Origin: a virus
Taxonomy: Duplodnaviria; Heunggongvirae; Uroviricota; Caudoviricetes
DNA: 64,000 nt
Virus record (IMG/VR): IMGVR_UViG_3300028887_000068
Span: 178,490-242,489 of that record
Reading direction: 5' to 3' (one strand)
Position numbers and translations under genes: made by a program. Of this stretch, positions 2,314-42,026 are shown one piece after another. Numbering within the stretch: the first letter of the stretch is position 1; each line of letters starts with the position of its first letter. The notes under the pieces were generated by a model that saw nothing but the letters and a program-made list of their open reading frames with translations, had not been told where the DNA came from and did not search any database.

Positions 2314-2347
2314 AAATAGAGAGAGATCTTGCGATCTCTCTATTTTT
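2312..2347. terminator. Bidirectional intrinsic terminator between convergent genes
   Basis: agagat-cttgcg-atctct stem (GCAA loop on - strand) flanked by A and T tracts. Confidence 0.75.
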
Positions 2348-4154
2348 ACTGCTCTCCAACGAAGAAGTCATCATAGACACCTTCAACGACTCTCTCATAC
2401 GTGTCGATTTCTTGAAGCTTCTTACGAAGATTCTCGAACGACAGGATCGTAGAAAGATTCTTGGTGTTGATGCCCTCGCTCAATCTGAGAACAGTAATCG
2501 GGCCAGTATCTGGCAACGAGAAGTCTGGTTTGTTTCCATTGATATCTCTCAACAGTGCCGACAAGATCGTTTCTGCATGAACAGATACAATCGGAATCTC
2601 ACCATCAACGATATACTTGAGGAACGCATTTGCGATAGCCACATAGTTGTTACCGATTCCGTTATGGCTGTCGGTCTGAATCAAGCTAATGAGATTCATC
2701 AATGCTTCGTTAAGCTCAACACTCTGACGACGCAACGTAAACAGTTCTTCGCTGTCTTCGATGTTGATGTTATACTCATGCTTGTATACTTCGAGTTCCT
2801 CTTTCACTCGTCCTGTCGGATACAGTGGTACAGGAAGATCGAATGTTTCCTGTGATTTCTTGTTCTTCACAGTCAGTCTGTTGACCACCAAGTTTCCTTC
2901 ATCGTCTTCACCAAGGTCTTCTCTTGCGATAGAGAACTTGCGAAGATCCTTTCCGGAAAGCAGCACATTCTTAGATTCTTCAAACAGTTCCGTGAATCCA
3001 GCTGGCCACTCGATGGGCTTAGTCTTTGCCATGAGAAGATGCTTTGCAGACAGAAGTCTCTGTGTCAAGCATGATGTAAGCAACAACACACCCACAGACC
3101 CAACACGGTAGTGTTCTTCGTTTGCCATATCGAACAAGTCGCCATAGCATCTTCTACAGATACCTGTCTTGCATGAACAAGTGATCGGGCTATAAATCTT
3201 AATCTTGCCTTTCATTCGTTCAAACTGTTCGGCACTTCCGTCAATCTTCTCTCCTGATTCCGTATATCTTCCTATCAGGCGAGTAAATGTCTTCATGTTC
3301 GGAACATCCACTTCCAACGGATGCTTCGTGTCACAGCACTCTTCATCTGACAATACAATGTCAGATGTGAGCAACAGCAACTTTCTTGCAAGGTATCCTG
3401 AGCGTCTCACTTGATGGTGAGAGATAACCAGTGCCTTTCTTGCACCAGTTGCAGATACCCAAAAGTCTTCAATACTTCTAAGTCCACGGATAAAGCTCGT
3501 GTTCACTGGGTGTTCGCAGATATTGTCATCGAGGTCTGGCTTCAGACCTACACACGCCACCATCTGAGTCAGCTGTTTCTTGTTAACAGCTTCTCCTCGG
3601 ATCAATTCTCTATACGGAGAATCTGGGGCGGAGAATACTCTACCGACTTCTTCAGTCAGCTTGGACATATCTTCTGACATTTCATCCAAGGTCTTGTGCT
3701 CATCGAGTTTGAAGTCGATGAGTTTCTTGGCTTCAGGATTACTCTTATACATCTTTGCAAGACTGTATAAGTCAACGGTAATACCGTGGATCTCATTTGT
3801 CTTTGTGGACAGAATGAGAAGATCCTGAATCACCTCAAAGATTTTCTCTTTCAGATTGTCTACTCCGGCTTCTCTTGCCATGTTCGCTAAGCGTCTGATA
3901 TACGCATCAACGTCCTTGGCACTATCACCGTCAAACAAATCGCTCTCATCGAACTCCATGTCCAAACCCTTGGACACAGCTCTCAATGCCGTAAGAGAGA
4001 TGATGGCTCGACCGACTGTCGTATCCTTGGTCAAAATCTTGATCGGAGTAGACTTTCGTTCTGCAATCGTTCCCTCTCCGTTAAAGAGGAATTCCCTGAG
4101 ACCAGTGTAGCTCTTTTCAATGCTTTCACTTGTCAGCGAAGTAATGCTATTCAT
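2346..4154 (-). CDS. Multisubunit RNA polymerase beta' subunit, C-terminal half (probably non-virion RNAP)
   Basis: Bridge helix GARKAL..RSGYLARKL, Zn site CCDT..SPITC..GICRRCYG, trigger loop TQRLLSAKH, C-terminal HAETIL/ILSFEN; lacks the DxDGD motif, so the gene is split. Confidence 0.9.
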   Translation of the reverse strand: MNSITSLTSESIEKSYTGLREFLFNGEGTIAERKSTPIKILTKDTTVGRAIISLTALRAVSKGLDMEFDESDLFDGDSAKDVDAYIRRLANMAREAGVDNLKEKIFEVIQDLLILSTKTNEIHGITVDLYSLAKMYKSNPEAKKLIDFKLDEHKTLDEMSEDMSKLTEEVGRVFSAPDSPYRELIRGEAVNKKQLTQMVACVGLKPDLDDNICEHPVNTSFIRGLRSIEDFWVSATGARKALVISHHQVRRSGYLARKLLLLTSDIVLSDEECCDTKHPLEVDVPNMKTFTRLIGRYTESGEKIDGSAEQFERMKGKIKIYSPITCSCKTGICRRCYGDLFDMANEEHYRVGSVGVLLLTSCLTQRLLSAKHLLMAKTKPIEWPAGFTELFEESKNVLLSGKDLRKFSIAREDLGEDDEGNLVVNRLTVKNKKSQETFDLPVPLYPTGRVKEELEVYKHEYNINIEDSEELFTLRRQSVELNEALMNLISLIQTDSHNGIGNNYVAIANAFLKYIVDGEIPIVSVHAETILSALLRDINGNKPDFSLPDTGPITVLRLSEGINTKNLSTILSFENLRKKLQEIDTYERVVEGVYDDFFVGEQ

Positions 4155-4241
4155 TAGCTCTCCTTGTGGATAATTTATAGTTACTTCAATTTCTTTATAT
4201 ACAAAAGAAAAGACTCTAAGGAAGTCCTTAGAGTCCTTGTA

Positions 4242-7025: not shown

Positions 7026-7627
7026 GAGAGAAACACCTCACGGTAGTTAATGTTGAAGTGGTCACGAGAGAGTTTAAGTGTTTCGTAGACCGAAGAGTAA
7101 TCCGTAGGCTCGCCGTTAAACTTGAACCACAACGGGTTGATCAGTTCTTCCTTCTGGAGAAGAGTCTTAAGACCGTTAGGAAATCTTTTCAAGAAGTACA
7201 TGTTCATTTCAATGAACACCTTAGAGCGTTCGAGAACATTCATAGACGGAAATACATTGTTTTCTCGCTTCACTGTTCTCCAAGTCTCTTCCTTGATAGC
7301 TCCTGCCGTCCTTGTAAGGAACGTACCAAGAGCGTAGTCCTTAGCTTCCATGAACGGAGTTACCCAGTAGATCTTTTCATTAATGGCGTCAAGCCAGTTG
7401 AACCTGTCGTAGTTATCCGTTTTCATGTCGTTCGGGAAGCTGTCAAGAAAAGCGTCCATAGTCATGACACCCTTCGTCTTATCAAACTGTCCAAGAGCTT
7501 CAAGCGGCGATACTACGGGGATAGGCTTGACCTTTGCAAGCATATGGATCATTTCTTCTAGCAAGTCCATTCTGTTAATAAATGGCACGAAGAAAGACAT
7601 GTCTACTACAATATTAAACATAGTCAT
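7022..7627 (-). CDS. Hypothetical protein
   Basis: 201-aa ORF, SD aggag, ATGA overlap with sbcC. Confidence 0.7.
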   Translation of the reverse strand: MTMFNIVVDMSFFVPFINRMDLLEEMIHMLAKVKPIPVVSPLEALGQFDKTKGVMTMDAFLDSFPNDMKTDNYDRFNWLDAINEKIYWVTPFMEAKDYALGTFLTRTAGAIKEETWRTVKRENNVFPSMNVLERSKVFIEMNMYFLKRFPNGLKTLLQKEELINPLWFKFNGEPTDYSSVYETLKLSRDHFNINYREVFLS

Positions 7628-7699
7628 GGTTCTCCTTTGGTTCGATATAAAGTTCGGGGTATGGATTCTTGAACTTTATAATGAACATATAAGGAGTCA

Positions 7700-8596
7700 A
7701 TGATGAATACTCTGTCTCTCAAGCTCAAAGAACTTCATTACATCACTATGCTTAACATTTCTGCCAACGAGGATCCTAACCTCAACGTCCCGACTATCCT
7801 CATCGGTAACGGTACGTCTGATGTGAAGAAGGAAATTCATGACAGATATATGGACAAGCTCCGTGACATCGTGAGGAAGTCTGAATCTGAGTACAAGGGA
7901 CTCAGTGATGGCTATGCTACGATGTTCGATCAGTTCATTAAGTCCTACAAGGAAAAGCTTGCTGGCAACATCAAGATGTCCAAAGAGCACAATAAGGAAC
8001 TGGACGGATATACGCCTACTTCTAGCTTCAACATCAGTGTCAAACCTTATGTGCTTGACTTGAAGACTAAGACCGATGCTCACAAGATGGCAATCACAGA
8101 ATTGCTTCAGAAGTACTTCATTCCGAAACTTGCTGTTATCACTAACAAAGTCGATACTTCTAGATTTGAGGGCCAGTGGAAGGATATTCTCCTGACTTCT
8201 GTAACTAGAACAGGAAAGGCTCCTGACGATGAGTTCAAGACTGTAGAGGTTCCGCCCAAGGTTATCTCTGAATACCTTGAAGGATTTGGAATCAACAACT
8301 TGACAATGCTTCAGGATCAGCATACTGAAATCGATAACTTTGTAAAGCGTCTCAGAGAAAACATTGAAGGAGCTATCAATAAGCTCAAAATCGATGTCGA
8401 TAACTTTGACGTTCATAAGGCAAAGGCCGAAAGTACTGAAATCGAAGGTAGAGCTAGGAAAGTGGCCAAGTTGCTTTACTTATTCAAGGATCTGAAAGAT
8501 TCAATGGCATTGTCCAATAGTATCACTATGGACAGACTTGCCACTGGAGAACAGATAGTTAAAGCTGTCCTCAACCTGAAAGATCCTCAAGAATAA
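7700..8596 (+). CDS. Hypothetical helical protein, late-type promoter
   Basis: 298 aa, SD aaggag, AACTTTATAATG at 7672-7683, terminator at 8601-8635. Confidence 0.75.
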   Translation: MMNTLSLKLKELHYITMLNISANEDPNLNVPTILIGNGTSDVKKEIHDRYMDKLRDIVRKSESEYKGLSDGYATMFDQFIKSYKEKLAGNIKMSKEHNKELDGYTPTSSFNISVKPYVLDLKTKTDAHKMAITELLQKYFIPKLAVITNKVDTSRFEGQWKDILLTSVTRTGKAPDDEFKTVEVPPKVISEYLEGFGINNLTMLQDQHTEIDNFVKRLRENIEGAINKLKIDVDNFDVHKAKAESTEIEGRARKVAKLLYLFKDLKDSMALSNSITMDRLATGEQIVKAVLNLKDPQE

Positions 8597-8600
8597 ATTT

Positions 8601-8638
8601 ATACCTCCATCGTGGGATGGAGGTATTTTTATTTTTTA
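8601..8638 (+). terminator. Intrinsic terminator
   Basis: atacctccatc-gtgg-gatggaggtat followed by a T tract. Confidence 0.8.
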
Positions 8639-9896: not shown

Positions 9897-10709
9897 TTAT
9901 TCTCTGCTGGCATAGAAAGCCTTTTTATTCTGCGATATACGCAGAGCTTTCTTTTCTTGTACAGCCTCATCCGAAAGGAGGTAATCCCCGTTGGCGAAAA
10001 TATCTATACCGTAATTCTTAAATTCTTCATAGATACGATTATAGACACGGCGCTCGTCATTAGATAGATCAGATCTTGAGTGCTTGCCAAGACTAATAAG
10101 GTAATCGCGACATGGCTTCACTGCAGACTTCGCATTGCTTTGCCTGTCTTTTCTAAAATTGTCAATGAAAGCGGTGTCCTTGTACCTTCCATCAGAAAAG
10201 ATATCTATACCATACTTTCGATTGAAGTATTCTATGCGTTTATACGCTAATTTTTCTTCTTTTGTTAGTTCTGGTATCATCTTACCAAGCGACAAAAGAA
10301 ATTTTGCTGCTGGCTTGTCTTTCTTTTTGTTGTTATCGGAAACTCTTTGAATACGTGTTCCATAGGTAACATTATACTGGCGATCGCACCATTCCAAATT
10401 GTCGTATCTATTGTTTTCTTGGTTTTCATCTTTATGGTTCACCTCAAGAAAGTGAGTCGGATCCGGATTATGAACGAAAGCTTCGGCTACAAGGCGATGA
10501 ACATAAAAAGTAACATTATGTCTCGATATACGCATATAACCTGATCCAGTCTTTCCTATGTGAGCATCAATAAAGTCGTCTTCGCTAAAATCAGCTGAAA
10601 GAGCTCTGCTGTTAGCAGGAACCTTGATTTTTCCATCAGGAAAAACTAGAAATGTAAACATTTTTCCATTTTTCTTTTCCTGTAATCTTACTGGTTTGAG
10701 TTTTTCCAT
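9897..10709 (-). CDS. Free-standing HNH homing endonuclease
   Basis: VHRLVAEAF..EVNHKDENQENNRYDNLEWC..YN motif; duplicated C-terminal module. Confidence 0.88.
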   Translation of the reverse strand: MEKLKPVRLQEKKNGKMFTFLVFPDGKIKVPANSRALSADFSEDDFIDAHIGKTGSGYMRISRHNVTFYVHRLVAEAFVHNPDPTHFLEVNHKDENQENNRYDNLEWCDRQYNVTYGTRIQRVSDNNKKKDKPAAKFLLSLGKMIPELTKEEKLAYKRIEYFNRKYGIDIFSDGRYKDTAFIDNFRKDRQSNAKSAVKPCRDYLISLGKHSRSDLSNDERRVYNRIYEEFKNYGIDIFANGDYLLSDEAVQEKKALRISQNKKAFYASRE

Positions 10710-13434: not shown

Positions 13435-13983
13435 TTAGTCTAGATGTTTTGGAGCAGGAATCTCACCTTCGAATTCGAAGTCAATCGGGACAATCTGTCT
13501 CTTGCCTTCAAATGTTTCGATGATCTTACAACGCTCAAATTTATGAACAACATCCTTCGTTGCATTATACAGCTCCTGTAAAGCCATAGCCCAGATAGCA
13601 AAACTTCCATTAGGCTTATTCATCCTGTAGACGTCTCGCTCAAGTTCGTCGGGTTCTTGATGCCAGCATACTAAGCTCTTCATCTTTCCACGGACTTCAT
13701 CCGTTATAGATCTGAACATAATGTAAGCATGGTTGAATTCCGGGCCGTGGCCTGAACAACAGTACTGTGTTTCTACCCCTTCAATGCTGTTCAAACACAG
13801 AATGGGCAAGAGAATAGCATCATCAATATTATGGTATCCTTCCATAAACAGCTTTGCGCGGTCATAGACATCAGGCCACTGTACGATGTATTTCTTCTCT
13901 CTGAAGTTAACAAAGGCTTGGGATGTAGAGGTGCTGTTAGCACCATTACACACCAAGTCAAACGCTAATTCGTCTGGCGTCAT
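13435..13983 (-). CDS. Hypothetical protein with a TQYCCSGH motif
   Basis: 182 aa, ATGA-coupled to the RNAP beta gene. Confidence 0.65.
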   Translation of the reverse strand: MTPDELAFDLVCNGANSTSTSQAFVNFREKKYIVQWPDVYDRAKLFMEGYHNIDDAILLPILCLNSIEGVETQYCCSGHGPEFNHAYIMFRSITDEVRGKMKSLVCWHQEPDELERDVYRMNKPNGSFAIWAMALQELYNATKDVVHKFERCKIIETFEGKRQIVPIDFEFEGEIPAPKHLD

Positions 13984-15872
13984 TTCTTGATCCTTAATCC
14001 GAGTCCGCTGAGATAACCGTTAAGCATACTCTTCGGAACATTGTTGCCTTTCCTTTCGAGAATGATCTCTTCGCCTTCTTTCTTTTTGATGAGAGCTTGT
14101 GCAAGCGCTAATCTATCTTCAGAAGACTGAGAAGAGAACGACAACAAGTCAGAAATGTCTTTGAGGTTTCCAGAGAACATCAGGTTGGAGGTTTCTTGTT
14201 CACCAAGTCTAATCGGGGTCTTGCTAAGAATATCAGTACTCTTCGCACTCTTACTCTTGTTCGGCACACCCTTGGAACTAAGTAAGCCGACACATCTTGC
14301 AGACTGCTTGCCAGACGGTTCTTGTTTCAGACGCATAAAGTACGCCTTGGCAAACGTCAACGGACGGTCGATACCCTTGAACTTGGTCTGTTGAATTCCG
14401 AGTTCTTCAACCAGGTCAGCGTATTCTTCGAAGCTGATGTTATCAAAGAATGGCGGCATGTGAATCGGGAAGCCCTTGTCGTACATCTCATTGATGAACG
14501 TCGTCAGAGCTGTTTCATCCAACGACTCGATGTACTTATCAAAGGACTCCTTCTGGTCATAGTTCAGAGCAAGATAACATTCACGAATACCTTCGATCTT
14601 CCCATCGAGTTTATCGTTCATGTGTCTCTTTCTGAAGTTGTCCGCTATTTCGTTGATTGCAAGTTCAAACAACGCACCGGGGTTCAATCGACCGATGATA
14701 CCGAGAGGCGACATACAAACTTCTGCATGGTCTCCATCAATGGTTTCCGGCATCTGGTCATCGGGCAGGATCTTAGAAATCACGCCCTTAGAGCCATAGC
14801 GATTTGTAATCTTACAACCTTCTTCAAGCGGTCTCTGATGACAGACTTTCACGTTCAGATACAAGAAGTCAAATTCATTCTTAGCTATCCACGGCTTCTT
14901 TTCGCTATGCGGGCCGTTCACCGACTCCGTATACCTAGCTATCGCATACGATGCATCCGGTGTAAGCAAACCCGTTTGCTTATAGGGCCATAAAGTTTCA
15001 ATGATTTCCAACCAGTATCTTTCCTGATTTTCCAAGATATCTCTAATCTGCTTCGACCACGGTTCGTTCAGAACTTCGGACGCAACGTTAGAGTATACCG
15101 TAATGTCTTCCACATATCCTACTCCACTGAAGACTGCGTCTGATGCGATAATCTTCTGTGCTGTAGCATCTGTAAATCTTGCAAACGAAGAACGCTTTTC
15201 GTATCTACGTCTTGCACAAATGATACCATTACTAATCTCTTGGAAGATATCCGGGAGACACTTGTAGTCATTGCTGTCGCCGTAAAGATTAAGTAACACG
15301 TCGTTCGAGTTGATAAGAACGCCGTATTCCATGATCTCAGTGAAAGCCATCTTTTGCGCAGCTGTTTCCGATACCAAAATGGCGTCTTCGATGGTTCCAT
15401 CCTTATGGTTATAGAAGATCGTTTTCAGATTCTTTCCATAAGCCAAGTTTAAGTGGTCGTCATATGCCGAAGCCGAGCTAATCACTTCCCCTGCTTCAAT
15501 TTCCATTCCTTCCGTAATGTTCTCGAAATCGGGAACACGGTTAAGATAACCGAAGTGCTCGGTGAGTCTCTTCGAGCTTGTGATTTCTTTAAAGTCAATC
15601 TTTTTCGTCTCTTGATCTTCTAGTATCAAGGCATAAGTAGAGTCGTTCTTTTTGATAGCCTTGACTACCTTCTGCTTATGGTCATATCGAAGAATGGACG
15701 AAGAAACTTCTCCGACCTGATTCTCGAAATTCGTAAAGAGCAGAGGCGGTTCCGGATCATCCAATACAAGAGCCTGATTTAGATGGTTGCAGACCATGTT
15801 AAGTCTTGGGCCATCGATCTTGTTCGCATTGGGAACCAGCAGTTCACTTTCGAGAAAGCTGTGATCTGCCAT
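13980..15872 (-). CDS. Multisubunit RNA polymerase beta subunit, C-terminal half (probably non-virion RNAP)
   Basis: PRLNMVCNHLNQAL, EDAILVSE, GCKITNRYGSKGVIS, IGRLNPG, RLKQEP..SAR, IRLGEQE. Confidence 0.92.
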   Translation of the reverse strand: MADHSFLESELLVPNANKIDGPRLNMVCNHLNQALVLDDPEPPLLFTNFENQVGEVSSSILRYDHKQKVVKAIKKNDSTYALILEDQETKKIDFKEITSSKRLTEHFGYLNRVPDFENITEGMEIEAGEVISSASAYDDHLNLAYGKNLKTIFYNHKDGTIEDAILVSETAAQKMAFTEIMEYGVLINSNDVLLNLYGDSNDYKCLPDIFQEISNGIICARRRYEKRSSFARFTDATAQKIIASDAVFSGVGYVEDITVYSNVASEVLNEPWSKQIRDILENQERYWLEIIETLWPYKQTGLLTPDASYAIARYTESVNGPHSEKKPWIAKNEFDFLYLNVKVCHQRPLEEGCKITNRYGSKGVISKILPDDQMPETIDGDHAEVCMSPLGIIGRLNPGALFELAINEIADNFRKRHMNDKLDGKIEGIRECYLALNYDQKESFDKYIESLDETALTTFINEMYDKGFPIHMPPFFDNISFEEYADLVEELGIQQTKFKGIDRPLTFAKAYFMRLKQEPSGKQSARCVGLLSSKGVPNKSKSAKSTDILSKTPIRLGEQETSNLMFSGNLKDISDLLSFSSQSSEDRLALAQALIKKKEGEEIILERKGNNVPKSMLNGYLSGLGLRIKK

Positions 15873-15938
15873 TTTTCTCCTTGAGGTTAAAGATAGGAGA
15901 ATCCCAAGCGTTTCCTGAGATTCTCCTTATCTAATATA

Positions 15939-32094: not shown

Positions 32095-32165
32095 AAGCTC
32101 TCCTTTCTATTGTGAAGTTTCGAGAATATAAAAACCCGTATCTTGCGATACGGGTCTTTATTACT

Positions 32166-35100
32166 TTAGCGTTCAACAATGAAGGAGAACACGAAGCGTT
32201 CCATGATGTCAACGAACGCCACAGCCACATCAATACGGCAGATTTTCTGCTGGACATCGTAGTCCGTAGAGGAGATCGTCGGAGTGATGTACTTGAATGC
32301 ACCCTGAAGGATGTATTCAGCAGCACAAGAATTCAGTTCGCTCATGAGCTGAGCCTGAACAGTGCCGATAGCGTCCTCGCTGCGGTAGTTACGGCTAATC
32401 TTGAGGAAGTCTCTCTTGACAGCCAAGATAGCACGAACAGCATGGATAAGCGTCAACGGAGTATTCTTCGTCTGAGAAGTCAGTTCGGTTGCGAAGAAGA
32501 CACCTTGAGCGTCACGTTCAATGTAGTTGACCTGATGCTTGTAGAGTTCGCTCATTTCATAGGTCGTCGGCATGTAGGAAATGCTACGGAAGCCAGCGAT
32601 CGTTCCACGGCGAGCGCCCACAAAGTTCTTGGTCTTACCATTTGCCACATCGTTAGACGGGATCTTGGAAGACAAGAAGAACGTCGGAGTAACCTTGATG
32701 ACCTTACCAGACCAGATATCATTCACAACCAGATGCTGGGTGAAGATAGAGGCATAGAAGGTATCGTAGTTCTGTTCATTCTGTCTCTTATCGATAGCCT
32801 GAGTAGCGTTGGCAATAGACAAGCCTTGGTCGAGCAACACAATGCAGTCCTGACGGGTGACAGATGCAAGATCCACCATTGCCTTACGGACAGTTTCATC
32901 GTAGTTAGCGTCGAACATCAAATCGAACTCACAGAGGTTCACGTTGGTGATGAACGGATCAGTCGTACCATTGTAGGCACGGACAAGAGCCTGAGCCAAA
33001 GTGCTCGTGTAAGCAGGTTGACCTTCATCGTCTTCATATTCGAAGCCCCAACCATTACCATACGAACCACCACCGAGATACAGCGAGGTAGCCGGGGTGA
33101 GGGTATTGTAGAACCAGAAGGAGACAAACGGTTCAGTATACATCAACAGATCAGAGTTATCTCTGGAGTAACGAGTCTGGTCGAGCGTGCAACCATCCAC
33201 GTCAGCACCGATAGCACTCATGAGGGAAGTGAACGCATACTGTGCAAGTTCAGTCGTTTCGTACTTTTCACCGAACGTTCTGGTGTTGAATTCATCGAGA
33301 TCGATACGGTTGAAGATGTACTTAATCACAGTGTCAACATCGACGTAGATTTCGTTATCATCTTCGTCAGTAACAACCTTGTTGTTAGCATCCTTCACTG
33401 CAAGCTTCGTTTCAATGAAGTTCTGGAGGTTGTCGTAGTTGACCACGCAAGTCAAGTAAGAAGAGTAGGTGTTCACCACGTCTTCAATAAAGAGGCTTTC
33501 CTTAGTAGCAGCCACAGCATCCGGATCGAAGGATACAGAGAACTGTTCACGAACAATTTCTTCACCCTTGGATTTTTCAATCACGGAGAGCTTGAACATA
33601 CTCCAATCAGGATAAGTACCATCAAAGTTGTCATCGTAGGTCAGAGACACTGCGAGGTTGTTGTACCACTTACCAGAACCCTTCGGCAAGAAGCGGCAGA
33701 ATTCAACAAAGTTAGCAGAGTTCAAAGTAGCCTGGTCTGCTTCCGTGATTTCGTCGCGGATTGCACCAACTACATAACCTTCCTTGGCATCTTCAATCTT
33801 ATCCCAGATGTCGCTGTTCTTGACCTTGATACCGTCTTCGATACGGTATGCTTCATAGTCAGCAGCAGCTTCCGGAGAGAAGTCAGAGAATGTCGTAGCC
33901 ACGAGACCGATCGTGTCATAAAGACGTTCGAGATAGTCGAAGTTGCCTTCGAAAGCACTACCATCGAATTCAACGATCTTGCGAACATAAGCAATCTTTT
34001 CACCCGGAATCTGAGATGCCGTGATGGAGGTCTTGCCTTCGTCAACATCGTCGTATGCACGAAGAGTCAGGTTTTCAAGAGAGTCAGAAACAAACGTGAG
34101 AGCAGCAGTACCATTGAAGCCAGCCACGGACATGTTACCAGAGAGAACTGGAACAAGACCTGCGAACGTGAATTCAAAAGCAGTTCCATAGACGGTGTCG
34201 AGCGTAGCCGTACCAGTCGTAGCACCGTTGGCGAGCTTTTCCATCACCTTGGATACCGGGATGTCAGAAACGACAATGTTCTGCAATCTGCCATTTTCTT
34301 CGGCAGTGAGGTAAGCCGCGATGACGTTCGGGACTTCAGTTGCGTCGATATCCGTTCTGAGCTTAATGGACGTAGTCGTCACATTGTCATTAGTCGTGGT
34401 CACCGTTGTAAACAGTTTACCATAGGACGTACCACGGATGGTGTTGAATTCATCGGCGGTGATAGCCTTAGTAGTATCAACGGTTACAGAAAGCTTACCT
34501 TCAGAAGCGGAAAGCGTATAGAGCGACGGAGTGGCGTTGAAGTAGTTGACATATTCAAGGTCATTGACAGCCAGCTTTCTTGCAGTACCGCCATCTACAG
34601 CAACTTTCCAGTTAGTTTCAGTGGAAACATCAGCACTGAAAGCAACCCTCGTTCTCACGATGCTTGCATACTTGGTTTCCATTGCCTTGACCGGATAGGA
34701 CTTATCGGTCGTCGGAACCATAGCTTCGCTGCTATCGCTCGGCTTGATACGGTTGAAACGATATGCTTCCGGAATAGTCACGGCTTCAGAGAACACCGGA
34801 GAACCATCCACGATTCTCTTCACGTAGAAGAGGGAAACATTCTTCGTTGCGCCAGTTGTTTCTGCTGCATTAACGAGAGCTGTAGCGGTTACTTCATTAC
34901 CAAGCTTGTAGTTGAGGGCATGGAGAGAGTTCCATTCGTCCACTTCAACCTTAGTGAATGCAGTGTTGTCGTTGATGAGATCCGAGGATACCGGAATATA
35001 CTGACCGACAGTTGCTTCCTTGTAAACTTCGTAAGAGAAATCCCAAGATGCTTCATCAGCAGTACCAATCACGAGAGACAGACGGGTCGTAAGCTTTGCA

Positions 35101-36338
35101 GTGCCGTTCGTAGCGGAAGCGACAATTTCATCGCCACCGAAGAAAGTCGTAATATCGACATTTCTGAATACTGCGCGAGCATTGCCAGCAGCGGTTCTGT
35201 TATCCTGCAACCAGAGAGACGTGTGCTTTTCGTCCTTCTTGATTTTAGAACCGAACCCCGGCTTCTTTCCGGTTTCTTCGATTTCGCTTCCTTCAAGTTC
35301 AGCCTTGAACTGGTCTGCGGTAGTAGAACCAACGCGACCAAAGAGAGCTACAAGAGCGCCGTCAAGTGTCGTTGCGATGTCGGTGGTAGCAGCTGCTGCA
35401 TAAATGCGAACCGTACCAGAGAAGATAAGAACATGAGAAGCCTTGTCGGCATCTGCGACATCCGGGTCAACAGCTGCAAGAGCCTGTTCATAGGTTTCAT
35501 ATACCTTGATGGAGGTAGCAGAACCAGCAGTTTCAGTTTCAATAGCCGTACCAACTTCGTCAGTAATGCAGAAATGGTCAGCAAGAATCGTTGCCACAAA
35601 GCTCGTAGCAGACGTCGGATCAGCAAAAGTTACACCGCCAACTTCACCAACGAAGTAACCATTAGCATTGGAGACAAGCTTAATATCTTGGCTGAAGATA
35701 CCAGAAAATTCGACATACGGATTGGAGTATGTAACGACATTCTTCTTAGCCACGGCAGTGATGGTCTTAGTCGTATCAGTGTTCTTGGCCTTGTAGAGTT
35801 CGATTTCATCGAGCGTCTGAAGACGGAGAGCAGTGTTGATAGTACCATTTTCTTCCACGTAGAACAACGGGAGGATAGCGAAATTGCCGGAACGACCGTC
35901 AACAGCAACCTTCTGCTTGTCGTCAGTCTGAGCAAGATTCCAGAGCTTAATCTGGTCAGTCGTCATTTCGAGACGACGATACTTTTCCTGATCGTTGGTG
36001 AAAGCCTGTTCCTTACGGAAACCAATGCCAAGAGAAAGGGCAGCAAATCTTTCATCATCCGGGACTACACGGATCACCCAAGCGCCGCCACCAGCATTGA
36101 TATAATTGAGAGCGTTCAGAGCCGATTGACCGTACTTAGCGTAGGACGGTTCACCGAAGTTGAAGATCCATTCACTCTGAGTAGTGATGTAAGTAGCTTC
36201 ATTCGGCATACCCTTTTCGGCTTCCAAGGCAATGAACATGTTTGTCAAGCCGCTAGACGATACAGTCAGGACGGCATTATCGATAATACGAGCACTCGAG
36301 TGCGGGTGCATGTATTTCGGCAGAGAATCAGCAGCCAT
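32166..36338 (-). CDS. Contractile tail sheath protein with a large internal insertion
   Basis: Sheath N-domain (FNFGEP..YGQ..NYINAGG.AWVIRV), PKGSGKWYN, C-domain (FDANY..RQDC..LYKHQVNY..ERF); strong codon bias. Confidence 0.88.
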   Translation of the reverse strand: MAADSLPKYMHPHSSARIIDNAVLTVSSSGLTNMFIALEAEKGMPNEATYITTQSEWIFNFGEPSYAKYGQSALNALNYINAGGGAWVIRVVPDDERFAALSLGIGFRKEQAFTNDQEKYRRLEMTTDQIKLWNLAQTDDKQKVAVDGRSGNFAILPLFYVEENGTINTALRLQTLDEIELYKAKNTDTTKTITAVAKKNVVTYSNPYVEFSGIFSQDIKLVSNANGYFVGEVGGVTFADPTSATSFVATILADHFCITDEVGTAIETETAGSATSIKVYETYEQALAAVDPDVADADKASHVLIFSGTVRIYAAAATTDIATTLDGALVALFGRVGSTTADQFKAELEGSEIEETGKKPGFGSKIKKDEKHTSLWLQDNRTAAGNARAVFRNVDITTFFGGDEIVASATNGTAKLTTRLSLVIGTADEASWDFSYEVYKEATVGQYIPVSSDLINDNTAFTKVEVDEWNSLHALNYKLGNEVTATALVNAAETTGATKNVSLFYVKRIVDGSPVFSEAVTIPEAYRFNRIKPSDSSEAMVPTTDKSYPVKAMETKYASIVRTRVAFSADVSTETNWKVAVDGGTARKLAVNDLEYVNYFNATPSLYTLSASEGKLSVTVDTTKAITADEFNTIRGTSYGKLFTTVTTTNDNVTTTSIKLRTDIDATEVPNVIAAYLTAEENGRLQNIVVSDIPVSKVMEKLANGATTGTATLDTVYGTAFEFTFAGLVPVLSGNMSVAGFNGTAALTFVSDSLENLTLRAYDDVDEGKTSITASQIPGEKIAYVRKIVEFDGSAFEGNFDYLERLYDTIGLVATTFSDFSPEAAADYEAYRIEDGIKVKNSDIWDKIEDAKEGYVVGAIRDEITEADQATLNSANFVEFCRFLPKGSGKWYNNLAVSLTYDDNFDGTYPDWSMFKLSVIEKSKGEEIVREQFSVSFDPDAVAATKESLFIEDVVNTYSSYLTCVVNYDNLQNFIETKLAVKDANNKVVTDEDDNEIYVDVDTVIKYIFNRIDLDEFNTRTFGEKYETTELAQYAFTSLMSAIGADVDGCTLDQTRYSRDNSDLLMYTEPFVSFWFYNTLTPATSLYLGGGSYGNGWGFEYEDDEGQPAYTSTLAQALVRAYNGTTDPFITNVNLCEFDLMFDANYDETVRKAMVDLASVTRQDCIVLLDQGLSIANATQAIDKRQNEQNYDTFYASIFTQHLVVNDIWSGKVIKVTPTFFLSSKIPSNDVANGKTKNFVGARRGTIAGFRSISYMPTTYEMSELYKHQVNYIERDAQGVFFATELTSQTKNTPLTLIHAVRAILAVKRDFLKISRNYRSEDAIGTVQAQLMSELNSCAAEYILQGAFKYITPTISSTDYDVQQKICRIDVAVAFVDIMERFVFSFIVER

Positions 36339-36494
36339 AATTGGACTCCTTGTATTTGCTAAAGTTAATATTCATAAGACATTTATGAAATATCGATGCT
36401 CATTTTAGAGTTTCTGGAAGGATGATAAAATTGATAGTTTCTTCCTGAGTAAAATTCAGACTGCTGAGAGTATATTAAACTATGAGGTAAGATT

Positions 36495-36614
36495 ATGTTT
36501 ATACTACCAGTCTTATTCATCATGCTTCTTTACGGCATCTTTACGATGCGTAAGAAGATGCTTGTAGCATTTATCGTGGGGGTGCTATATGGCATTATAT
36601 CCAGTTCCCACTAG
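36495..36614 (+). CDS. Small hydrophobic membrane peptide (39 aa, not in the ORF track)
   Basis: MFILPVLFIMLLYGIFTMRKKMLVAFIVGVLYGIISSSH; SD gaggt; TATATTAAACTATG promoter at 36471-36484. Confidence 0.55.
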   Translation: MFILPVLFIMLLYGIFTMRKKMLVAFIVGVLYGIISSSH

Positions 36615-36633
36615 CAGCTACAGGAGGCTGAAT

Positions 36634-36780
36634 ATGGCACAGGTAATCATTGGGGGAATGATCCTCCTTATCTTATTGTTTGTTATGTTGATAGCAACAT
36701 TCCTCATCCCCATTATCCTTATGGGCGGTGGAATCATGTTCTTGTTATACCAGATAGCCTTGCACATGGGCTGCTTCTAG
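36634..36780 (+). CDS. Small hydrophobic membrane peptide (48 aa)
   Basis: SD aggagg before MAQVIIGG; almost entirely hydrophobic. Confidence 0.6.
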   Translation: MAQVIIGGMILLILLFVMLIATFLIPIILMGGGIMFLLYQIALHMGCF

Positions 36781-36827
36781 TATGACAAAAAAAAAATAAG
36801 TGGTCTATACAACCACTTATTTTTTTT

Positions 36828-37559
36828 TTAACAGTGAATGACTTTCTCGAACGGAGAGTCAATACCCTTGATGCCCTTCTTTCCGGCTACACAACCCACA
36901 GACACAGCTGAGGTAACATCTTCGAATGCAATACCGGAGAATGTTGAGGTAACTCTCGGTAATTCCTGAATTCGGATGTTCGTATAGTCAGAATCAGAGC
37001 CAGTTCTACCAGCGATCTTACGATACGGAGTATAGATGTCTTTAGAGCTTCGACACATTTCCCCGATCATAGCTTCAGTAACCGACATAGGCACACCCAA
37101 GGCAGTGCCATTGAGAGATGACACTTCTTTCAGGAAGTTTGCGATATCGGAGTACTTCAGGTTATCAGGGAGCTTACCGCCAAGCAGGAAGTTCAGGAAG
37201 AGTTCAGAGTTCTTTCCGTTCTGCACATTGAGAGCTTCTTGGAACATGACAGAATTACCTTTGATGGTAAATGCCATGTACTCATCCTCTTCGTGAGTAC
37301 CCTTGAATTTTTTCTTCTCTTTTCTAGATTCAGCAAAGGGAATAGTAAGCTTCAAAGGGCAATCAAGCTGCCAGAGTTCCGGCTTGGATGTAGGTGTCTT
37401 GTAAATCTCAATGAAAATGAATCCTATGGTCTTAACCAGTTCGCCTTCGACAACAGAGATTCTCTCATTATCGAAGAAGTACAGAGGGACGTACACCACA
37501 GCTTGCGGAGCTGTAAGATAGTAGTCATTCTCAACACGTTTCAGAAATGGTAATGCCAT
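36828..37559 (-). CDS. RNA polymerase beta' extreme C-terminal fragment (probably virion RNAP)
   Basis: LNG..GVP...TEAMIGEMCR and STFSGIAFED..SAV...VAGK..SPFEKVI resemble the RpoC C-terminal HIEVIVRQM and SFISAASFQET..AG..LKENVI regions. Confidence 0.65.
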   Translation of the reverse strand: MALPFLKRVENDYYLTAPQAVVYVPLYFFDNERISVVEGELVKTIGFIFIEIYKTPTSKPELWQLDCPLKLTIPFAESRKEKKKFKGTHEEDEYMAFTIKGNSVMFQEALNVQNGKNSELFLNFLLGGKLPDNLKYSDIANFLKEVSSLNGTALGVPMSVTEAMIGEMCRSSKDIYTPYRKIAGRTGSDSDYTNIRIQELPRVTSTFSGIAFEDVTSAVSVGCVAGKKGIKGIDSPFEKVIHC

Positions 37560-37586
37560 AGGATATCCTCACTTTCATATTGGAGT

Positions 37587-38462
37587 TTACTTAGATTCGC
37601 TGACATACTGGCCGAGGAGCTTATCAAAGTCTTCGACAGCATGGGCGAATTCTTCAACGATGCTCATATCAAGACGTTCGAAGACATCTTTCGGCAGGGA
37701 TCTAGAAGCCATAGCAGCCACGGAAATGGTACTGAGAGTCTTTGCCAAACCCTTGACGAACTGTCTGGAGTCATAACCGCCGAGTTTGTGGCAGTAATTG
37801 GCTACAGCGATGGCGAAGCAACGATAGAGAGATTCCATCGGAGTCTTCACACAGAAGCGAAGAGCAAGGAGAAGATTCTTGAATGCTGGCTTACCAAGAA
37901 TTTCGTCAACGTACTTGACAGAGGCTTCGAATTTGTCCTTATCATTCCATACGTTGACGATAGCAGACGGACGGACATTTTCTTCTTCGAAGAAGCCCAT
38001 CGTCACTTTCTTCAGCGTAATGCTTTCTTGGAACTGGATATGGTTACGGTGAAGCTTCTGGAATTCGATCTTAAGCTTGTTCTTAAGGGAACTCTTACGC
38101 TTCGAGCCCTTGTATTCCTTCATCTTTTCGTTGATGAACTTATCGAGACCAACGGCATACGGTTGTGCAAGGAAGGCACGGGAGACCTTATGGGCAAGAT
38201 TGAAACCCTTGAGAGTTTCGCCAACGAGAGCCACAGCAGCAGCTTCACGCATGGCAGCAGCTTCTTCCTTTTCATCCTTTCCGCTAGCAGATTCCATGAT
38301 CTCCTGAGCTTTGTCAAGAGCGATGGTTTCATCTTCGCTCATCTGAGAACGGAGTTCAGCGTTGTCCTTAGCAATTTCTTCGGTTTTCTGTTCAAACGAG
38401 TTGATAGCTTCAAGAGCCTGTTCAGCTTGTTCTTCAATTTTCGGTTCCTGAGTTTCGCTCAT
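37587..38462 (-). CDS. Hypothetical protein
   Basis: 291 aa, SD aggag, acidic N-terminus. Confidence 0.7.
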   Translation of the reverse strand: MSETQEPKIEEQAEQALEAINSFEQKTEEIAKDNAELRSQMSEDETIALDKAQEIMESASGKDEKEEAAAMREAAAVALVGETLKGFNLAHKVSRAFLAQPYAVGLDKFINEKMKEYKGSKRKSSLKNKLKIEFQKLHRNHIQFQESITLKKVTMGFFEEENVRPSAIVNVWNDKDKFEASVKYVDEILGKPAFKNLLLALRFCVKTPMESLYRCFAIAVANYCHKLGGYDSRQFVKGLAKTLSTISVAAMASRSLPKDVFERLDMSIVEEFAHAVEDFDKLLGQYVSESK

Positions 38463-38470
38463 GGTTACTC

Positions 38471-39289
38471 CTATTGATTTTTGATAGCGATCTCGCTCAA
38501 CTGTTGGTATACAGAGAGCGTAATTAAATGCTTTGCTTCAATGTTAGATTGATCATTCACAGATTTGATAAGGGAATCAAATGCTGTCGGAAGCACAACC
38601 AGTTCCAACTTATCAAGAAGAATAGCGTTCTGCCATTCGTCTTCATTGTCGGCACAGTAGACTTCGAGTTCCTTGTAGAAGTCCGTAGAAGCGGTGGTTC
38701 CTTCAATCACGTCATTGACGACATCTTCAAGACAGTCAAGCAACACGAGAAGACCTGTATCTGTAGCCCCAGTATACTTCTTCTGTGCGCCGATATTCTT
38801 TCTCGAAGACTTCGATTTATATGTATTTATGAATTCCTTCTTGTGTTTGAGAATGGATTTCACGATGTAGTTAGCCAGACCTTCCTTGCGGTTAATAACA
38901 AGGAACGAGTAGAAAGCTTGAACTAGATCGGCGAAGTCAGCTCCACTTCCTTCAGTGCTACCGAAGGCATTGCTAGCTGCATCGATCCCAAAGAATTCCT
39001 TAAACTTGGTGAGAAGCCTGATGCGGATGTCATAAAGGTATTCCGTAAGGAAGTTAGCCTTATCGGTGCATCCTTGTTCTCTGGCTCTTTCCCTGAGAGC
39101 CATCACAGTGTTAGTAACGGCTGTAAGGGCATCCTCCTGAGTTTCGGTAGGAATCTTCTTCAGATCGTCCATCTGCTGAAATAGTCTCTCTTCAAGAGCC
39201 AACACATTGTCGTCCATTCGGAACTCTGAATTCCCTGTTCCGAACTCAAGATCTTCTGTATCGGTCATTAAATCGTTGTACTTGCCCAT
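38471..39289 (-). CDS. Hypothetical protein
   Basis: 272 aa; internal promoter AACTTTTCAATG at 39312-39323 within the terL 3' end. Confidence 0.7.
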   Translation of the reverse strand: MGKYNDLMTDTEDLEFGTGNSEFRMDDNVLALEERLFQQMDDLKKIPTETQEDALTAVTNTVMALRERAREQGCTDKANFLTEYLYDIRIRLLTKFKEFFGIDAASNAFGSTEGSGADFADLVQAFYSFLVINRKEGLANYIVKSILKHKKEFINTYKSKSSRKNIGAQKKYTGATDTGLLVLLDCLEDVVNDVIEGTTASTDFYKELEVYCADNEDEWQNAILLDKLELVVLPTAFDSLIKSVNDQSNIEAKHLITLSVYQQLSEIAIKNQ

Positions 39290-41234
39290 AGAACGTATCC
39301 TTCATGGTTTTCATTGAAAAGTTCGGCTCATTCCCGAAATTGAGAGAAAAGATCTTCCTCATTTTCAGGTCGTCGTGAACCACGTTTTCTTCAGAGCTAA
39401 TGATATGTTCAGTGATTGTCGTCATCTTCTCTTCCGGTACTGCAACACTCTTGCGTTCCCTGAGAGACGATGCACAGACTCTTCGCTTAAACATCTTAAA
39501 GCTATCGAACGATGCGGCATATCTGCCGATGAGCATGGACATAAGGAAGTCGTCATGAGCGCCGTTAGAATGTTCAACCTTTCCGTTGCTCTTGCGTTCC
39601 AGTGTCTTAAGCTCTTCATAGGTGAATCTAGACCGGATTGTATGCGGTTCTTCTTCAACATACATGAACAGATTAGCAATCATGATATCACGAGATCCGG
39701 AAGTAGTGTCAATACCGTAGACCTTCTGTACCTTGTTACCCTGTCCTGGGATCGGGTTATTGATAGTACGATAGAAGACTTTATTGGCAGTGACAGAACT
39801 CTCGAGCAATGTCGTAATCACGTCTAGACCATAGCTGTTTCTTTCAACCACTAAGAGCGAGTTATAGAACAGGTTACGGACTACTTCAATCAGAATTCTA
39901 GCAAACGGGATTGGGTTAATCCTATTCGAAGAGAAGTAACCCTTCTCGTGGAAATCATCAATATCAAGCATATGAATGACAGAGAAGTCAGTGCCGACAC
40001 CACCGCCAACGTCAACAGAGAGGATGACAGGATCATGGAAGTCCACTGGTTCAAGCATAGTGAACTTGTGGTTTCCTTGGTCTCCGATTCTAAGATAGGT
40101 CTCTTGTTCCTTACGGACAACAAAGTTGCTAACCCTTTCAAGACAGTCTTCGGTGAACGGAGACTTATCGGAAGAGAGCGTCCATTCAAGGTCAACTTCA
40201 CGCTTAATCTTCTGTCTATCGTACTGAAGATCACGGCACTGCTGTTCGTACCACTTTTCATCACGACCGAGTTCTCTCCATGTGAATTCAATGTGGACGA
40301 AGTTATTGGTAGATCTTTCGTAGACATAATCCCTAAGCTTGTCAGCCGGAACGTCATACATTTCTTCAGTAAAGTCACAAGCAGCTTCAATAAGGTTATG
40401 CTTAGCCCATCCGCCTTCATCAGTATCGATAGAGTTCGGCGTAGTGGTAAACATCTTGAAATGAGGCACACCATTCTTCTCAGCTTCGATAGCAGCCTGA
40501 GATACAGCCGGAGCAGCAGCTGCATAGATGATGTTATTATATTTGGCGAACGCAATTTCATCGAAGAACCAGCACGGCATCGTAAGACCACGACCAAGCT
40601 TGTCTGCTTCTTCAGGGGATGTAGCAGCTGGCATAGCCGTGATTATATTCTTCAATAGCTTGTTACGAGAGAAAGTCGTAGAAGATTCTTGGTCTTCTCT
40701 GGACTGCTTCGGTTCAATCATCCATGCCGGAATCAATTCAACGATGTTCTTGAATCTCTTAAGGTTCACTTGTGCATCGCCATATTTCTTGTTCATGAAC
40801 GTTGACTGCGTGTTTTTTGTTCCGAAGAAAAATAGCCAAGAAAATAAAGACACAGCACCGATGGTCTTACCGTGTTGACGAGGCATCAATGTGATCGTGT
40901 CTATGTTATGAAGGCTCATGTAAGTCAGAGCAAGGTTTCCGCGATGGAGATTATAGGGGATAGAGCCACCCGGAACAGGAATTCGTACTACCTCTCTAAA
41001 ATAGTACCAAGGATTTATCTTGCACTCCGTAATTATTCGAGCCTTTATCTCTGTAGAAAGTCCTTCAGCTCTAGGATCAACAAATCTTAATCCTTCATCA
41101 TACAATGCTAAGAAAAACTTGTTGTTCTTGATTCCTTTTTCCTTCAGGTATTGGTGCATCTGAAGGAAGCTGGTATTTTTAGTTAGCTGGTAGGATACTT
41201 TCCGTTGAGTGAGATCGGAAAGTTGTGCTGCCAT
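39246..41234 (-). CDS. terL: Terminase large subunit
   Basis: NPWYYFRE, Walker A PRQHGKT, Walker B FFDEIAF, TTP, nuclease motifs SVDVGGG, ERNSYG, HDD. Confidence 0.93.
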   Translation of the reverse strand: MAAQLSDLTQRKVSYQLTKNTSFLQMHQYLKEKGIKNNKFFLALYDEGLRFVDPRAEGLSTEIKARIITECKINPWYYFREVVRIPVPGGSIPYNLHRGNLALTYMSLHNIDTITLMPRQHGKTIGAVSLFSWLFFFGTKNTQSTFMNKKYGDAQVNLKRFKNIVELIPAWMIEPKQSREDQESSTTFSRNKLLKNIITAMPAATSPEEADKLGRGLTMPCWFFDEIAFAKYNNIIYAAAAPAVSQAAIEAEKNGVPHFKMFTTTPNSIDTDEGGWAKHNLIEAACDFTEEMYDVPADKLRDYVYERSTNNFVHIEFTWRELGRDEKWYEQQCRDLQYDRQKIKREVDLEWTLSSDKSPFTEDCLERVSNFVVRKEQETYLRIGDQGNHKFTMLEPVDFHDPVILSVDVGGGVGTDFSVIHMLDIDDFHEKGYFSSNRINPIPFARILIEVVRNLFYNSLLVVERNSYGLDVITTLLESSVTANKVFYRTINNPIPGQGNKVQKVYGIDTTSGSRDIMIANLFMYVEEEPHTIRSRFTYEELKTLERKSNGKVEHSNGAHDDFLMSMLIGRYAASFDSFKMFKRRVCASSLRERKSVAVPEEKMTTITEHIISSEENVVHDDLKMRKIFSLNFGNEPNFSMKTMKDTFYGQVQRFNDRYRRS

Positions 41235-41250
41235 AGATACTCCTATAGTT

Positions 41251-41281
41251 CAATAGGTAGTTAGGGCAGAACTCAATAATG
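41251..41281. promoter_or_regulatory. Back-to-back AACT-N6-TG promoters for terL and the RNAP beta fragment
   Basis: AACTACCTATTG (-, 41251-41262) and AACTCAATAATG (+, 41270-41281). Confidence 0.7.
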
Positions 41282-41294
41282 AAAAGGAGTATTT

Positions 41295-42026
41295 ATGAGT
41301 ACAGGCAAAAGAAAGAAGGTCGAAGACCTCGTGTACAGCGTGATGGATGCCCTAGACAAGACTGGTGAAAACACTGACAAGTATCGCAAGATGTTCAACA
41401 AGATGAGCGATACTCAGTTCAATACTTGGATGAGCAAGTTCTTGTCGGATCCTACAGCCAACTTTAGACTTGAAGTTCTCCCTCATAAGAACGAACCGGA
41501 ATTCGACCAGATAGAGAAAGCCCTGAAGATTCTCAATATTCCGCTAGAAGAATATGTCTATTTTCGTGACCAGAAGGATACTAACGGTAATCCGGTCAGA
41601 ACAGCTACCCGTGTTCCGGTGTTCTATCTTTCCATCAAGCGATTGGAGCAGGTCGTTACCCATAAGTCTGGTGTTACTCTCGACATTGATAAGAGAAACC
41701 AGCTTACTGGTACTGTGACTTCTGACTCCAAGGTCGCTAGAAACTCTGACGTGGAATCCTACGCTCTGTTGCTTCAGCAGAATGAAGACTCTATGAAGGA
41801 ATTGAATGGTGCTCGAAGCGACAACATGGGTGCTAAGAGAGTTCTCTATTCTAAGATTCAGGCTGACGGATTCGTTAATCTGAAAGATGTCGAAGAAGGT
41901 TCTTCTGCATTTGAAAAGGTTGCCCTCAATACCTTCGATGCTTATATGCTTGGAGCTGGTGTCAAGACCGATACCATTACGGATTCCAATCTGCTCCCAG
42001 TGTCTCTTATCCCAGACATTGACTAA
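41295..42026 (+). CDS. RNA polymerase beta extreme C-terminal fragment (probably virion RNAP)
   Basis: YLSIKRLEQVVTHK, RNSDVESYAL, MKELNGARSDNMGAK..LY..I..DG, FDAYMLGAG parallel the RpoB C-terminal LKL.H..K / RFGEME..AL / EMLT.KSDD motifs. Confidence 0.75.
   Translation: MSTGKRKKVEDLVYSVMDALDKTGENTDKYRKMFNKMSDTQFNTWMSKFLSDPTANFRLEVLPHKNEPEFDQIEKALKILNIPLEEYVYFRDQKDTNGNPVRTATRVPVFYLSIKRLEQVVTHKSGVTLDIDKRNQLTGTVTSDSKVARNSDVESYALLLQQNEDSMKELNGARSDNMGAKRVLYSKIQADGFVNLKDVEEGSSAFEKVALNTFDAYMLGAGVKTDTITDSNLLPVSLIPDID

Follow-up and report, generated by a model that had tools for sequence, protein, structure and literature searches.

Two split RNA polymerase gene sets and two promoter-motif classes in an uncultured jumbo phage distantly related to AR9

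A 64-kb stretch of phage DNA (here the window; G000:C1:178490-242489) forms the terminal stretch of a 242,489-bp metagenomic jumbo phage recorded in IMG/VR. It encodes the C-terminal regions of both the beta and the beta' subunits of multisubunit RNA polymerase (RNAP) twice, raising the question of whether the phage has two complete polymerases and, if so, which is the virion enzyme (vRNAP), which is the non-virion enzyme (nvRNAP) and which promoters each would read. From the analysis described below it is very probable that the phage carries the complete two-RNAP set known from AR9 and phiKZ, a packaged vRNAP and an nvRNAP synthesized once infection has begun, with a separate promoter class for each. 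The system is already known biology in a new, deeply diverged lineage and involves no new mechanism.

Ten RNA polymerase genes in two sets

To identify the RNAP genes, all open reading frames (ORFs) of the genome were searched by tblastn against the ten RNAP genes of AR9, and the matches were confirmed using PHROGs and Pfam. One clear orthologue of each was found, four inside the window and six elsewhere in the genome. The pieces are named below by subunit and by N-terminal (N), middle (M) or C-terminal (C) position, with lengths in amino acids (aa).

Window 2346-4154, genome 180835-182643, minus strand: nvRNAP beta'-C, 602 aa, orthologue of AR9 gp154
Window 13980-15872, genome 192469-194361, minus strand: nvRNAP beta-C, 630 aa, orthologue of AR9 gp089
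Genome 143503-144882, minus strand: nvRNAP beta'-N, orthologue of AR9 gp270
Genome 68737-70224, minus strand: nvRNAP beta-N, orthologue of AR9 gp105
Genome 76781-78217, plus strand: nvRNAP sigma-like specificity subunit, gp226-like (phrog_25005, 3.7e-16)
Window 36828-37559, genome 215317-216048, minus strand: vRNAP beta'-C, 243 aa, family of AR9 gp125, phiKZ gp176 and SPN3US gp244
Window 41295-42026, genome 219784-220515, plus strand: vRNAP beta-C, 243 aa, RNAP domain of AR9 gp078 without its HD domain
Genome 171649-173130, minus strand: vRNAP beta'-N, orthologue of AR9 gp145, with DADFDGD
Genome 117477-118706, plus strand: vRNAP beta'-M, orthologue of AR9 gp264 (phrog_2962)
Genome 51899-56542, plus strand: vRNAP beta-N, 1547 aa, orthologue of AR9 gp189

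The four window ORFs had been placed at exactly these coordinates in the initial annotation, and all of them are RNAP pieces. The assignment of the large pair to the nvRNAP and of the small pair to the vRNAP, also made there, is upheld by orthology to the experimentally characterized subunits of AR9. The 630-aa beta-C contains PF00562 Rpb2_6 (4.9e-16), matches phrog_3295 "RNA polymerase beta subunit" (1e-93) and shares 36% identity over 90% of the length with AR9 gp089, annotated as the C terminus of the nvRNAP beta subunit (1e-105). The 602-aa beta'-C matches phrog_3015 (1e-56) and, weakly, PF04998 Rpb1_5, and was matched by tblastn to AR9 gp154, the C terminus of nvRNAP beta' (4e-49). The gp226-like subunit matches AR9 gp226 at 5e-15 by blastp. 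Genome-wide there are two beta' N-terminal halves, as expected if two enzymes are encoded, and both score above the PF00623 gathering threshold; that of the nvRNAP has the catalytic motif NADLDGD at residues 400 to 406 (27.8 bits against a cutoff of 25.3) and that of the vRNAP has DADFDGD. Judged from the sequence, the nvRNAP set (beta'-N, beta'-C, beta-N, beta-C and the gp226-like subunit) is complete, and the vRNAP set is complete in five pieces (beta'-N, beta'-M, the small beta'-C, the 1547-aa beta-N and the small beta-C). Each of the ten genes is a single intact ORF that has a ribosome-binding site and contains no intron.

The set corresponds one to one, with the same split sites but at no more than 27 to 51% amino acid identity, to that of AR9/PBS1, from which it differs in that AR9 gp145, gp189, gp078 and gp270 are interrupted. 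The same logic of packaged and nonpackaged split enzymes is known from phiKZ (vRNAP gp178, gp149, gp180, gp80 and gp176; nvRNAP gp55, gp68, gp71-73, gp74 and gp123) (PMC7598289), although phiKZ belongs to another clade and its late promoter, TATG, is not recognized as an AACN element of the template strand. All four window proteins also have homologues (27 to 38% identity) in phiR1-37 and the Staphylococcus S6/Madawaska-like jumbo phages with deoxyuridine (dU) DNA, which differ in host and lineage; the Staphylococcus records annotate the homologues of the 243-aa proteins as "viral RNA polymerase beta / beta-prime subunit."

The genome was estimated by CheckV to be approximately 94% complete. 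No near-identical phage was found, as megablast of 8 kb of the window gave no match among GenBank phages. Window proteins share 27 to 51% amino acid identity with those of Bacillus AR9/PBS1, Yersinia phiR1-37, Listeria LPJP1 and the Staphylococcus S6/Madawaska group, and the phage is a distant relative (30 to 50% amino acid identity) of AR9/PBS1, phiR1-37 and the S6-like phages; AR9 matches were obtained for 48 of the 266 genes. Closer uncultured relatives (77 to 91% identity) are present in IMG/VR and other metagenome collections, among the related genomes being the 235-kb IMGVR_UViG_3300031992_000008, and intact orthologues of all four window RNAP pieces were identified in such phages at 77 to 91% identity. 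Sequence alone was enough to recognize the whole AR9/phiKZ two-polymerase strategy, with its five-piece virion enzyme, sigma-like subunit and two promoter classes, in a jumbo phage that is uncultured and deeply diverged, which adds a distant point of comparison to the evolution of split RNAPs.

Two promoter-motif classes and the RNA polymerase genes

Besides the Shine-Dalgarno sequence, the k-mers AACTAA and TATATTA were enriched upstream of genes. Aligned instances of the first, late class read (g)AACTW-N3-AWTG(aa), and those of the second, early class (g)TATATTAA-N3-ATG. In this genome, where intergenic DNA makes up 7.4% of the sequence, AACT-N4-AWTG occurs 67 times with 48 copies intergenic; when any base from -11 to -8 was changed, or the spacing was altered, the number of intergenic copies was 4 or fewer. 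TATATWA-N6-G occurs 34 times (29 intergenic), and its counts drop at N5 and N7. The early motif has no -35 partner and lies at a strict distance of 6 nt from a G, which is usually that of ATG. Both classes are far commoner and more often intergenic than chance allows, and in relatives the motifs are kept in place while their flanks diverge, with +1 being G or A, as in AR9. The two spacing-specific promoter classes are real.

Regions upstream of the ten RNAP genes were scored with early and late position weight matrices (PWMs), with the following results.

nvRNAP beta'-N: early 19.2, late 8.2
nvRNAP gp226-like subunit: early 14.3, late 16.1
nvRNAP beta'-C: early 11.0, late 3.4
nvRNAP beta-C: early 10.3, late -3.0
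nvRNAP beta-N: early 7.8, late 3.6
vRNAP beta-C: early -2.2, late 15.1
vRNAP beta'-M: early 4.6, late 14.3
vRNAP beta'-C: early -2.1, late 7.4
vRNAP beta'-N: early -3.2, late 5.4
vRNAP beta-N: early -3.1, late -5.6 (no motif)

Early scores of the nvRNAP genes therefore range from 7.8 to 19.2, against a maximum of 4.6 for the vRNAP genes. Within the window, TATAT-class motifs had been noted upstream of the large pair and AACT-class motifs upstream of the small pair, and this division was recovered, with TATATAAAGAAATTG and TATATTAGATAAGG on one side and AACTCAATAATG and AACTCCAATATG on the other. These motifs and their close neighbors are as follows.

4187-4201, minus strand: early-class promoter-like motif TATATAAAGAAATTG, with the start codon of nvRNAP beta'-C 33 nt downstream (PWM 11.0)
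4171-4182, minus strand: late-like motif AACTATAAATTA, with a terminal TA instead of TG and a low matrix score, which follows TATATAAAGAAATTG in tandem
15925-15938, minus strand: early-class promoter-like motif TATATTAGATAAGG, upstream of nvRNAP beta-C (PWM 10.3)
37576-37587, minus strand: late-class motif AACTCCAATATG, 14 nt before the ribosome-binding site and start of vRNAP beta'-C (PWM 7.4)
41251-41262, minus strand: late promoter AACTACCTATTG of the terminase gene
41270-41281, plus strand: late-class promoter AACTCAATAATG of vRNAP beta-C (PWM 15.1)

The initial annotation had also placed both motifs before the beta' gene that starts at 4154. Both are present in the sequence, and the tandem is kept in relative G001 (77% identity), where AACTATAAATTA is conserved as AACTAAAAATTA. 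In a relative, CATATTAAAGAATG stands at the place of TATATAAAGAAATTG. The TA-ending variant is rare, with seven copies in the genome, three of them intergenic, and two of these three occupy the same tandem place ahead of the nvRNAP beta'-C and beta'-N genes. For nvRNAP beta-C, transcription is predicted to start at the G at 15925, the first base of a conserved hairpin (15895-15925, minus strand; GGAGAATC-loop-GATTCTCC). Motif and hairpin stems are kept in G001, and in an 82%-identical relative the stems are identical while the loop differs; the hairpin may act as a 5'-terminal stabilizing or regulatory stem-loop of the predicted early transcript. On the late side, AACTCAATAATG is conserved in three relatives, with a G-to-A change at +1 in two of them, and stands back to back with the terminase promoter AACTACCTATTG, 7 bp away. 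The motif AACTCCAATATG overlaps the stop codon of the upstream ORF and is kept as AACTCCATTATG in one relative, two others having one additional spacer base.

In AR9, early promoters of the form AAATATATATTAT-N6-G are read by the vRNAP and late promoters of the form AACA-N6-T[A/G] by the nvRNAP; expression of the vRNAP genes is late, and of the five nvRNAP genes four have an early and a late promoter in tandem and are classed as "continuously expressed" (PMC5312081). The present early class resembles that of AR9 in its TATATTA core and downstream G, with the start-G spacing within 1 nt of that in AR9, and differs from it in that the upstream AAATA of the AR9 consensus is not conserved. The late class shares the AR9 architecture of four bases, N6, T and a start base. 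By homology to AR9 (PMC5312081, PMC5449584, PMC9209446), TATATWA promoters would be read by the vRNAP and AACT promoters by the nvRNAP, and homology likewise points to virion packaging, to the timing of the two enzymes and to host independence. The packaged five-piece vRNAP would be injected with the DNA and fire TATATWA-N6-G promoters, including those of the nvRNAP genes; the five-subunit nvRNAP would then start at AACT-N6-TG promoters before structural and vRNAP genes, and new vRNAP would be made late and packaged. The tandem motifs at 4154 had been taken to suggest positive feedback on the nvRNAP, which is plausible and would agree with AR9, since nvRNAP genes there are continuously expressed from tandem promoters.

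Alternatively, TATATWA could be an extended -10-like element read by the host sigma-70 RNAP, in which case early transcription would depend on the host and the virion enzyme would serve some other role or read another motif. TATATTA does resemble TATAAT. However, the strict 6-nt spacing to G and the lack of a -35 partner do not fit this view, the core and start-G spacing are shared with an AR9 early promoter that is active without new protein synthesis and attributed to the vRNAP, and the genome encodes a complete and intact five-piece vRNAP. Reading by the host enzyme is thus improbable.

The small beta and beta' C-terminal pieces

The vRNAP set includes the two highly diverged 243-aa proteins, neither of which gave more than noise when searched against the PDB as a single sequence with phmmer. 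The direct matches of the beta'-C piece (36828-37559) were limited to phrog_2926 "virion structural protein" and AR9 gp125 "virion protein." These labels, which PHROGs and most GenBank records share, would fit a structural protein of the head or virion that plays no part in the polymerase and resembles the beta' C terminus by chance, as would the failure of both the single sequence and a 100-sequence profile to reach any PDB chain. As the sequence searches of the PDB were empty, the link to beta' needed profile-profile and fold comparison, and the relationship is remote but consistent.

An exhaustive HMMER search yielded 339 representative homologues of the beta'-C piece, nearly all of approximately 240 aa; in three Staphylococcus phage records the homologue is named "viral RNA polymerase beta-prime subunit." A 100-sequence profile of the family matched AR9 gp125 (7.5e-94), phiKZ gp176 (1.4e-14) and SPN3US gp244 (2.7e-7). 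The gp244/gp176 family was identified as the missing C terminus of vRNAP beta' through SPN3US genetics and proteomics (PMC5105663; PMC7598289), SPN3US virions lose gp244 along with other vRNAP subunits (PMC5105663), and AR9 gp125 is counted among the vRNAP subunits (PMC5312081). As in those phages, the piece is approximately 240 aa long, lies among virion genes and can be aligned with the final conserved segment of beta' (PMC5105663), although gp244 and gp176 are very distant (profile matches of 3e-7 and 1e-14) and are not reached by single-sequence tblastn.

Using hhalign, the family profile was aligned with the nvRNAP beta'-C family over 202 columns, collinear with residues 389 to 585 of 602, that is, with the C-terminal third (probability 93%, E value of 3.3e-7). 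An AlphaFold (AF2) model built on the same alignment had a predicted local distance difference test score (pLDDT) of 92.9. The best 50 Foldseek matches listed from the PDB were all RNAP beta' chains, the first being the AR9 nvRNAP beta'-C chain 7s01_D (1e-4). With VIA-align, residues 112 to 243 of the model were superposed on the extreme C terminus of the RNAP largest subunit from phage, bacterial, archaeal, plastid and eukaryotic enzymes (Z scores of 4.4 to 6.5). The targets included phiKZ nvRNAP residues 533 to 675 (the best structural match), AR9 gp154 residues 510 to 631, Thermus beta' residues 1234 to 1469, E. coli beta' residues ~1131 to 1356 and archaeal A''. Such Z scores, which would also suit a fortuitous likeness, are middling when taken alone, and their weight comes from the uniform family and region of the matches, every VIA-align row listed being the C terminus of a largest subunit. 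Furthermore, in the metagenomic protein P0109 (601 aa) the middle beta' family (phrog_2962) and this small C-terminal family (phrog_2926) are naturally fused, which also shows that the extra split of the virion beta' is not universal. With the joint loss of gp244 and other vRNAP subunits from SPN3US virions, and the standing of AR9 gp125 as a vRNAP subunit, a structural protein alone already looks unlikely, and we hold the chance of it to be very small.

The beta-C piece (41295-42026) matches phrog_3233 "RNA polymerase beta subunit" (1.5e-39) and shares ~51% identity with the RNAP exons of AR9 gp078 over its first ~136 residues, with weaker high-scoring segment pairs (39 to 43%) beyond. In gp078 this domain is fused to an HD phosphohydrolase domain peculiar to Bacillus phages (PMC7598289), and the AR9 record gives the RNAP domain as the sole part of gp078 found in virions. 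The window piece differs in having no HD domain, as it begins after the position of that domain. When a 15-sequence profile was compared with the PDB, the top matches were all bacterial RpoB (E. coli residues ~1220 to 1310), the best covering residues 1235 to 1338 of a 1,358-aa RpoB and spanning the conserved GEME...SDD region (E value of 0.006). In an hhalign comparison using a six-phage alignment, residues 12 to 225 were collinear with residues 428 to 628 of the 630-aa nvRNAP beta-C (E value of 4e-4). The AF2 model was poor (pLDDT of 61 overall, and below 50 across most of residues 110 to 176, the part that aligns with RpoB), and for this reason no fold search was made with the beta-C piece.

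Taken together, the profile, hhalign and fold comparisons bear out that the beta and beta' C-terminal regions each occur twice with different split points, and that both 243-aa proteins align to the C termini of these subunits, an alignment that the initial annotation had put forward as a check. The 1547-aa virion beta-N spans nvRNAP beta-C up to approximately residue 400, and the virion beta-C aligns with residues 428 to 628; thus, the virion beta is cut approximately 430 residues later than the nonvirion beta. In the virion beta', a further cut falls at about residue 385 of nvRNAP beta'-C. The 243-aa protein is therefore its C-terminal piece, as had been proposed, but the virion beta' is in three pieces and not two. 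Pairwise blastp between virion and nonvirion pieces was mostly insignificant, with the beta-N/beta-C, beta'-M/beta'-C and beta'-N pairs alone reaching 1e-6 to 1e-8.

That the small pair lies among virion genes, also part of the initial annotation, is borne out by gene order, which on the minus strand (terminase, two ORFs, beta'-C, tail sheath) is that of AR9 gp121 to gp126.

39246-41234, minus strand: terminase large subunit (phrog_32359, 8e-65)
37587-39289, minus strand: two ORFs without assigned function, lying between the genes for terminase and beta'-C where AR9 has gp123 and gp124
32166-36338, minus strand: tail sheath gene (phrog_19666, 7e-109), adjoining the beta'-C gene as do gp125 and gp126 in AR9

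The two ORFs at 37587-39289 had no PHROG match, and the late motif AACTTTTCAATG, which ends at 39312, lies upstream of them. The terminase and vRNAP beta-C genes diverge from each other, and a baseplate-like gene flanks the latter on its other side. The vRNAP homologues are virion proteins in AR9, phiKZ, SPN3US and phiR1-37.

Several results weigh against the two-polymerase cascade. The scores that tie the small beta piece to beta are individually weak (E values of 0.006 and 4e-4), beside strong links at the family level. Late motifs are weak before vRNAP beta'-C (7.4) and beta'-N (5.4), and none is present within 130 nt of vRNAP beta-N, so that this gene is probably transcribed within an operon. 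Early motifs are imperfect before nvRNAP beta-N (7.8), beta-C (10.3) and beta'-C (11.0). When promoter class was tabulated against AR9 homologues, virion genes had 0 early and 5 late promoters and nonvirion genes 3 early, 7 late and 1 of both classes; the direction is right, but with AR9 matches for only 48 of the 266 genes the comparison is underpowered, and as seven nonvirion homologues carry the late class, late motifs also precede many nonstructural genes. That one set is instead a decaying duplicate beside a single functional enzyme is scarcely credible: the sets are indeed extremely diverged, but all ten genes are intact and have ribosome-binding sites, both catalytic loops are kept, the window pieces have intact orthologues in related phages, AR9, phiR1-37 and the Staphylococcus phages share the ten-gene layout, and neither frameshifts in relatives nor a ratio of nonsynonymous to synonymous substitution rates near 1 was seen.

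Late-promoter variant and minor observations

The late motif retains the architecture of the AR9 consensus but has T at -8 and is a variant of it, AACT in place of AACA, with A-W added at -3/-2. Exact AACA-type promoters are not enriched in the genome, as AACA-N4-AWTG is present in 13 copies, of which 2 are intergenic. A second change lies in the gp226-like subunit, in which the 2.1bis helix reads YTDMLIWSYL, compared with YSDVVIWTYL in AR9 and YSDQVIWRYL in phiR1-37, which keeps the Val. The uracil-selecting Val206 of AR9 excludes thymine at -10 and was reported to be absolutely conserved in dU phages; here, and in G001, in which the subunit is 84% identical, it is replaced by Leu, the helix (residues 209 to 217) being otherwise conserved. 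T for the A of AR9 at -8 of the late motif and Leu at the position of Val206 are what is new in this lineage.

It is an evenly balanced proposition that the nvRNAP of this lineage reads a retuned template-strand promoter, 3'-UUGA-5' (or TTGA) as opposed to 3'-UUGU-5' in AR9, with a strict T at nontemplate -8, added contacts at -3/-2 and the Val-to-Leu exchange. If so, the phage would be a natural specificity variant and could reveal by what means the beta' lid and the 2.1bis helix determine which base is required at -8, as well as whether uracil dependence of recognition is retained. The pairing of AACT with Leu, against AACA with Val, is a natural late-promoter variant that can be tested with recombinant enzyme. 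As Leu retains a C-beta, uracil dependence may persist. No ThyA, ThyX or dUTPase was detected in the genome, which is compatible with a deoxyuridine genome like those of AR9 and phiR1-37 and proves nothing, and no homologue of Ugi or dCMP deaminase was found by tblastn, a difference from AR9.

Within the late structural cluster, a strong early-class promoter-like motif, TATATTAAACTATG (score of 22), is located at 36465-36486 on the plus strand. A 63-aa ORF lies between the sheath and beta'-C genes on the opposite strand (36589-36780, plus strand). A 1416-aa ORF antisense to the tail sheath gene (32112-36362, plus strand) had no family match and is almost certainly a shadow ORF.

The most overrepresented 12-mer of the genome is GGATCTTAGAAA, with 10 exact copies; GGATCATAGAAA is present in 5 copies. 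Sites include window positions 5360, 14768 and 30501 and genome positions 8472, 17893 and 144959. Copies are mostly intragenic and on either strand, with some adjoining early promoters or terminators. The 12-mer GGATCTTAGAAA was considered as a promoter and rejected, as most of its copies are inside genes and it belongs to neither promoter class.

Homologues of homing endonucleases, free-standing or intron borne, were identified in the window at 9897-10709 and 46764-47294 (both minus strand) and in the genome at 149400-151043 (plus strand), and resemble AR9 gp271 (HNH), gp190 (HNH-AP2) and gp146 (Hef-like). The homologue at 46764-47294 adjoins a DNA polymerase fragment at 47419-49029 (phrog_3011).

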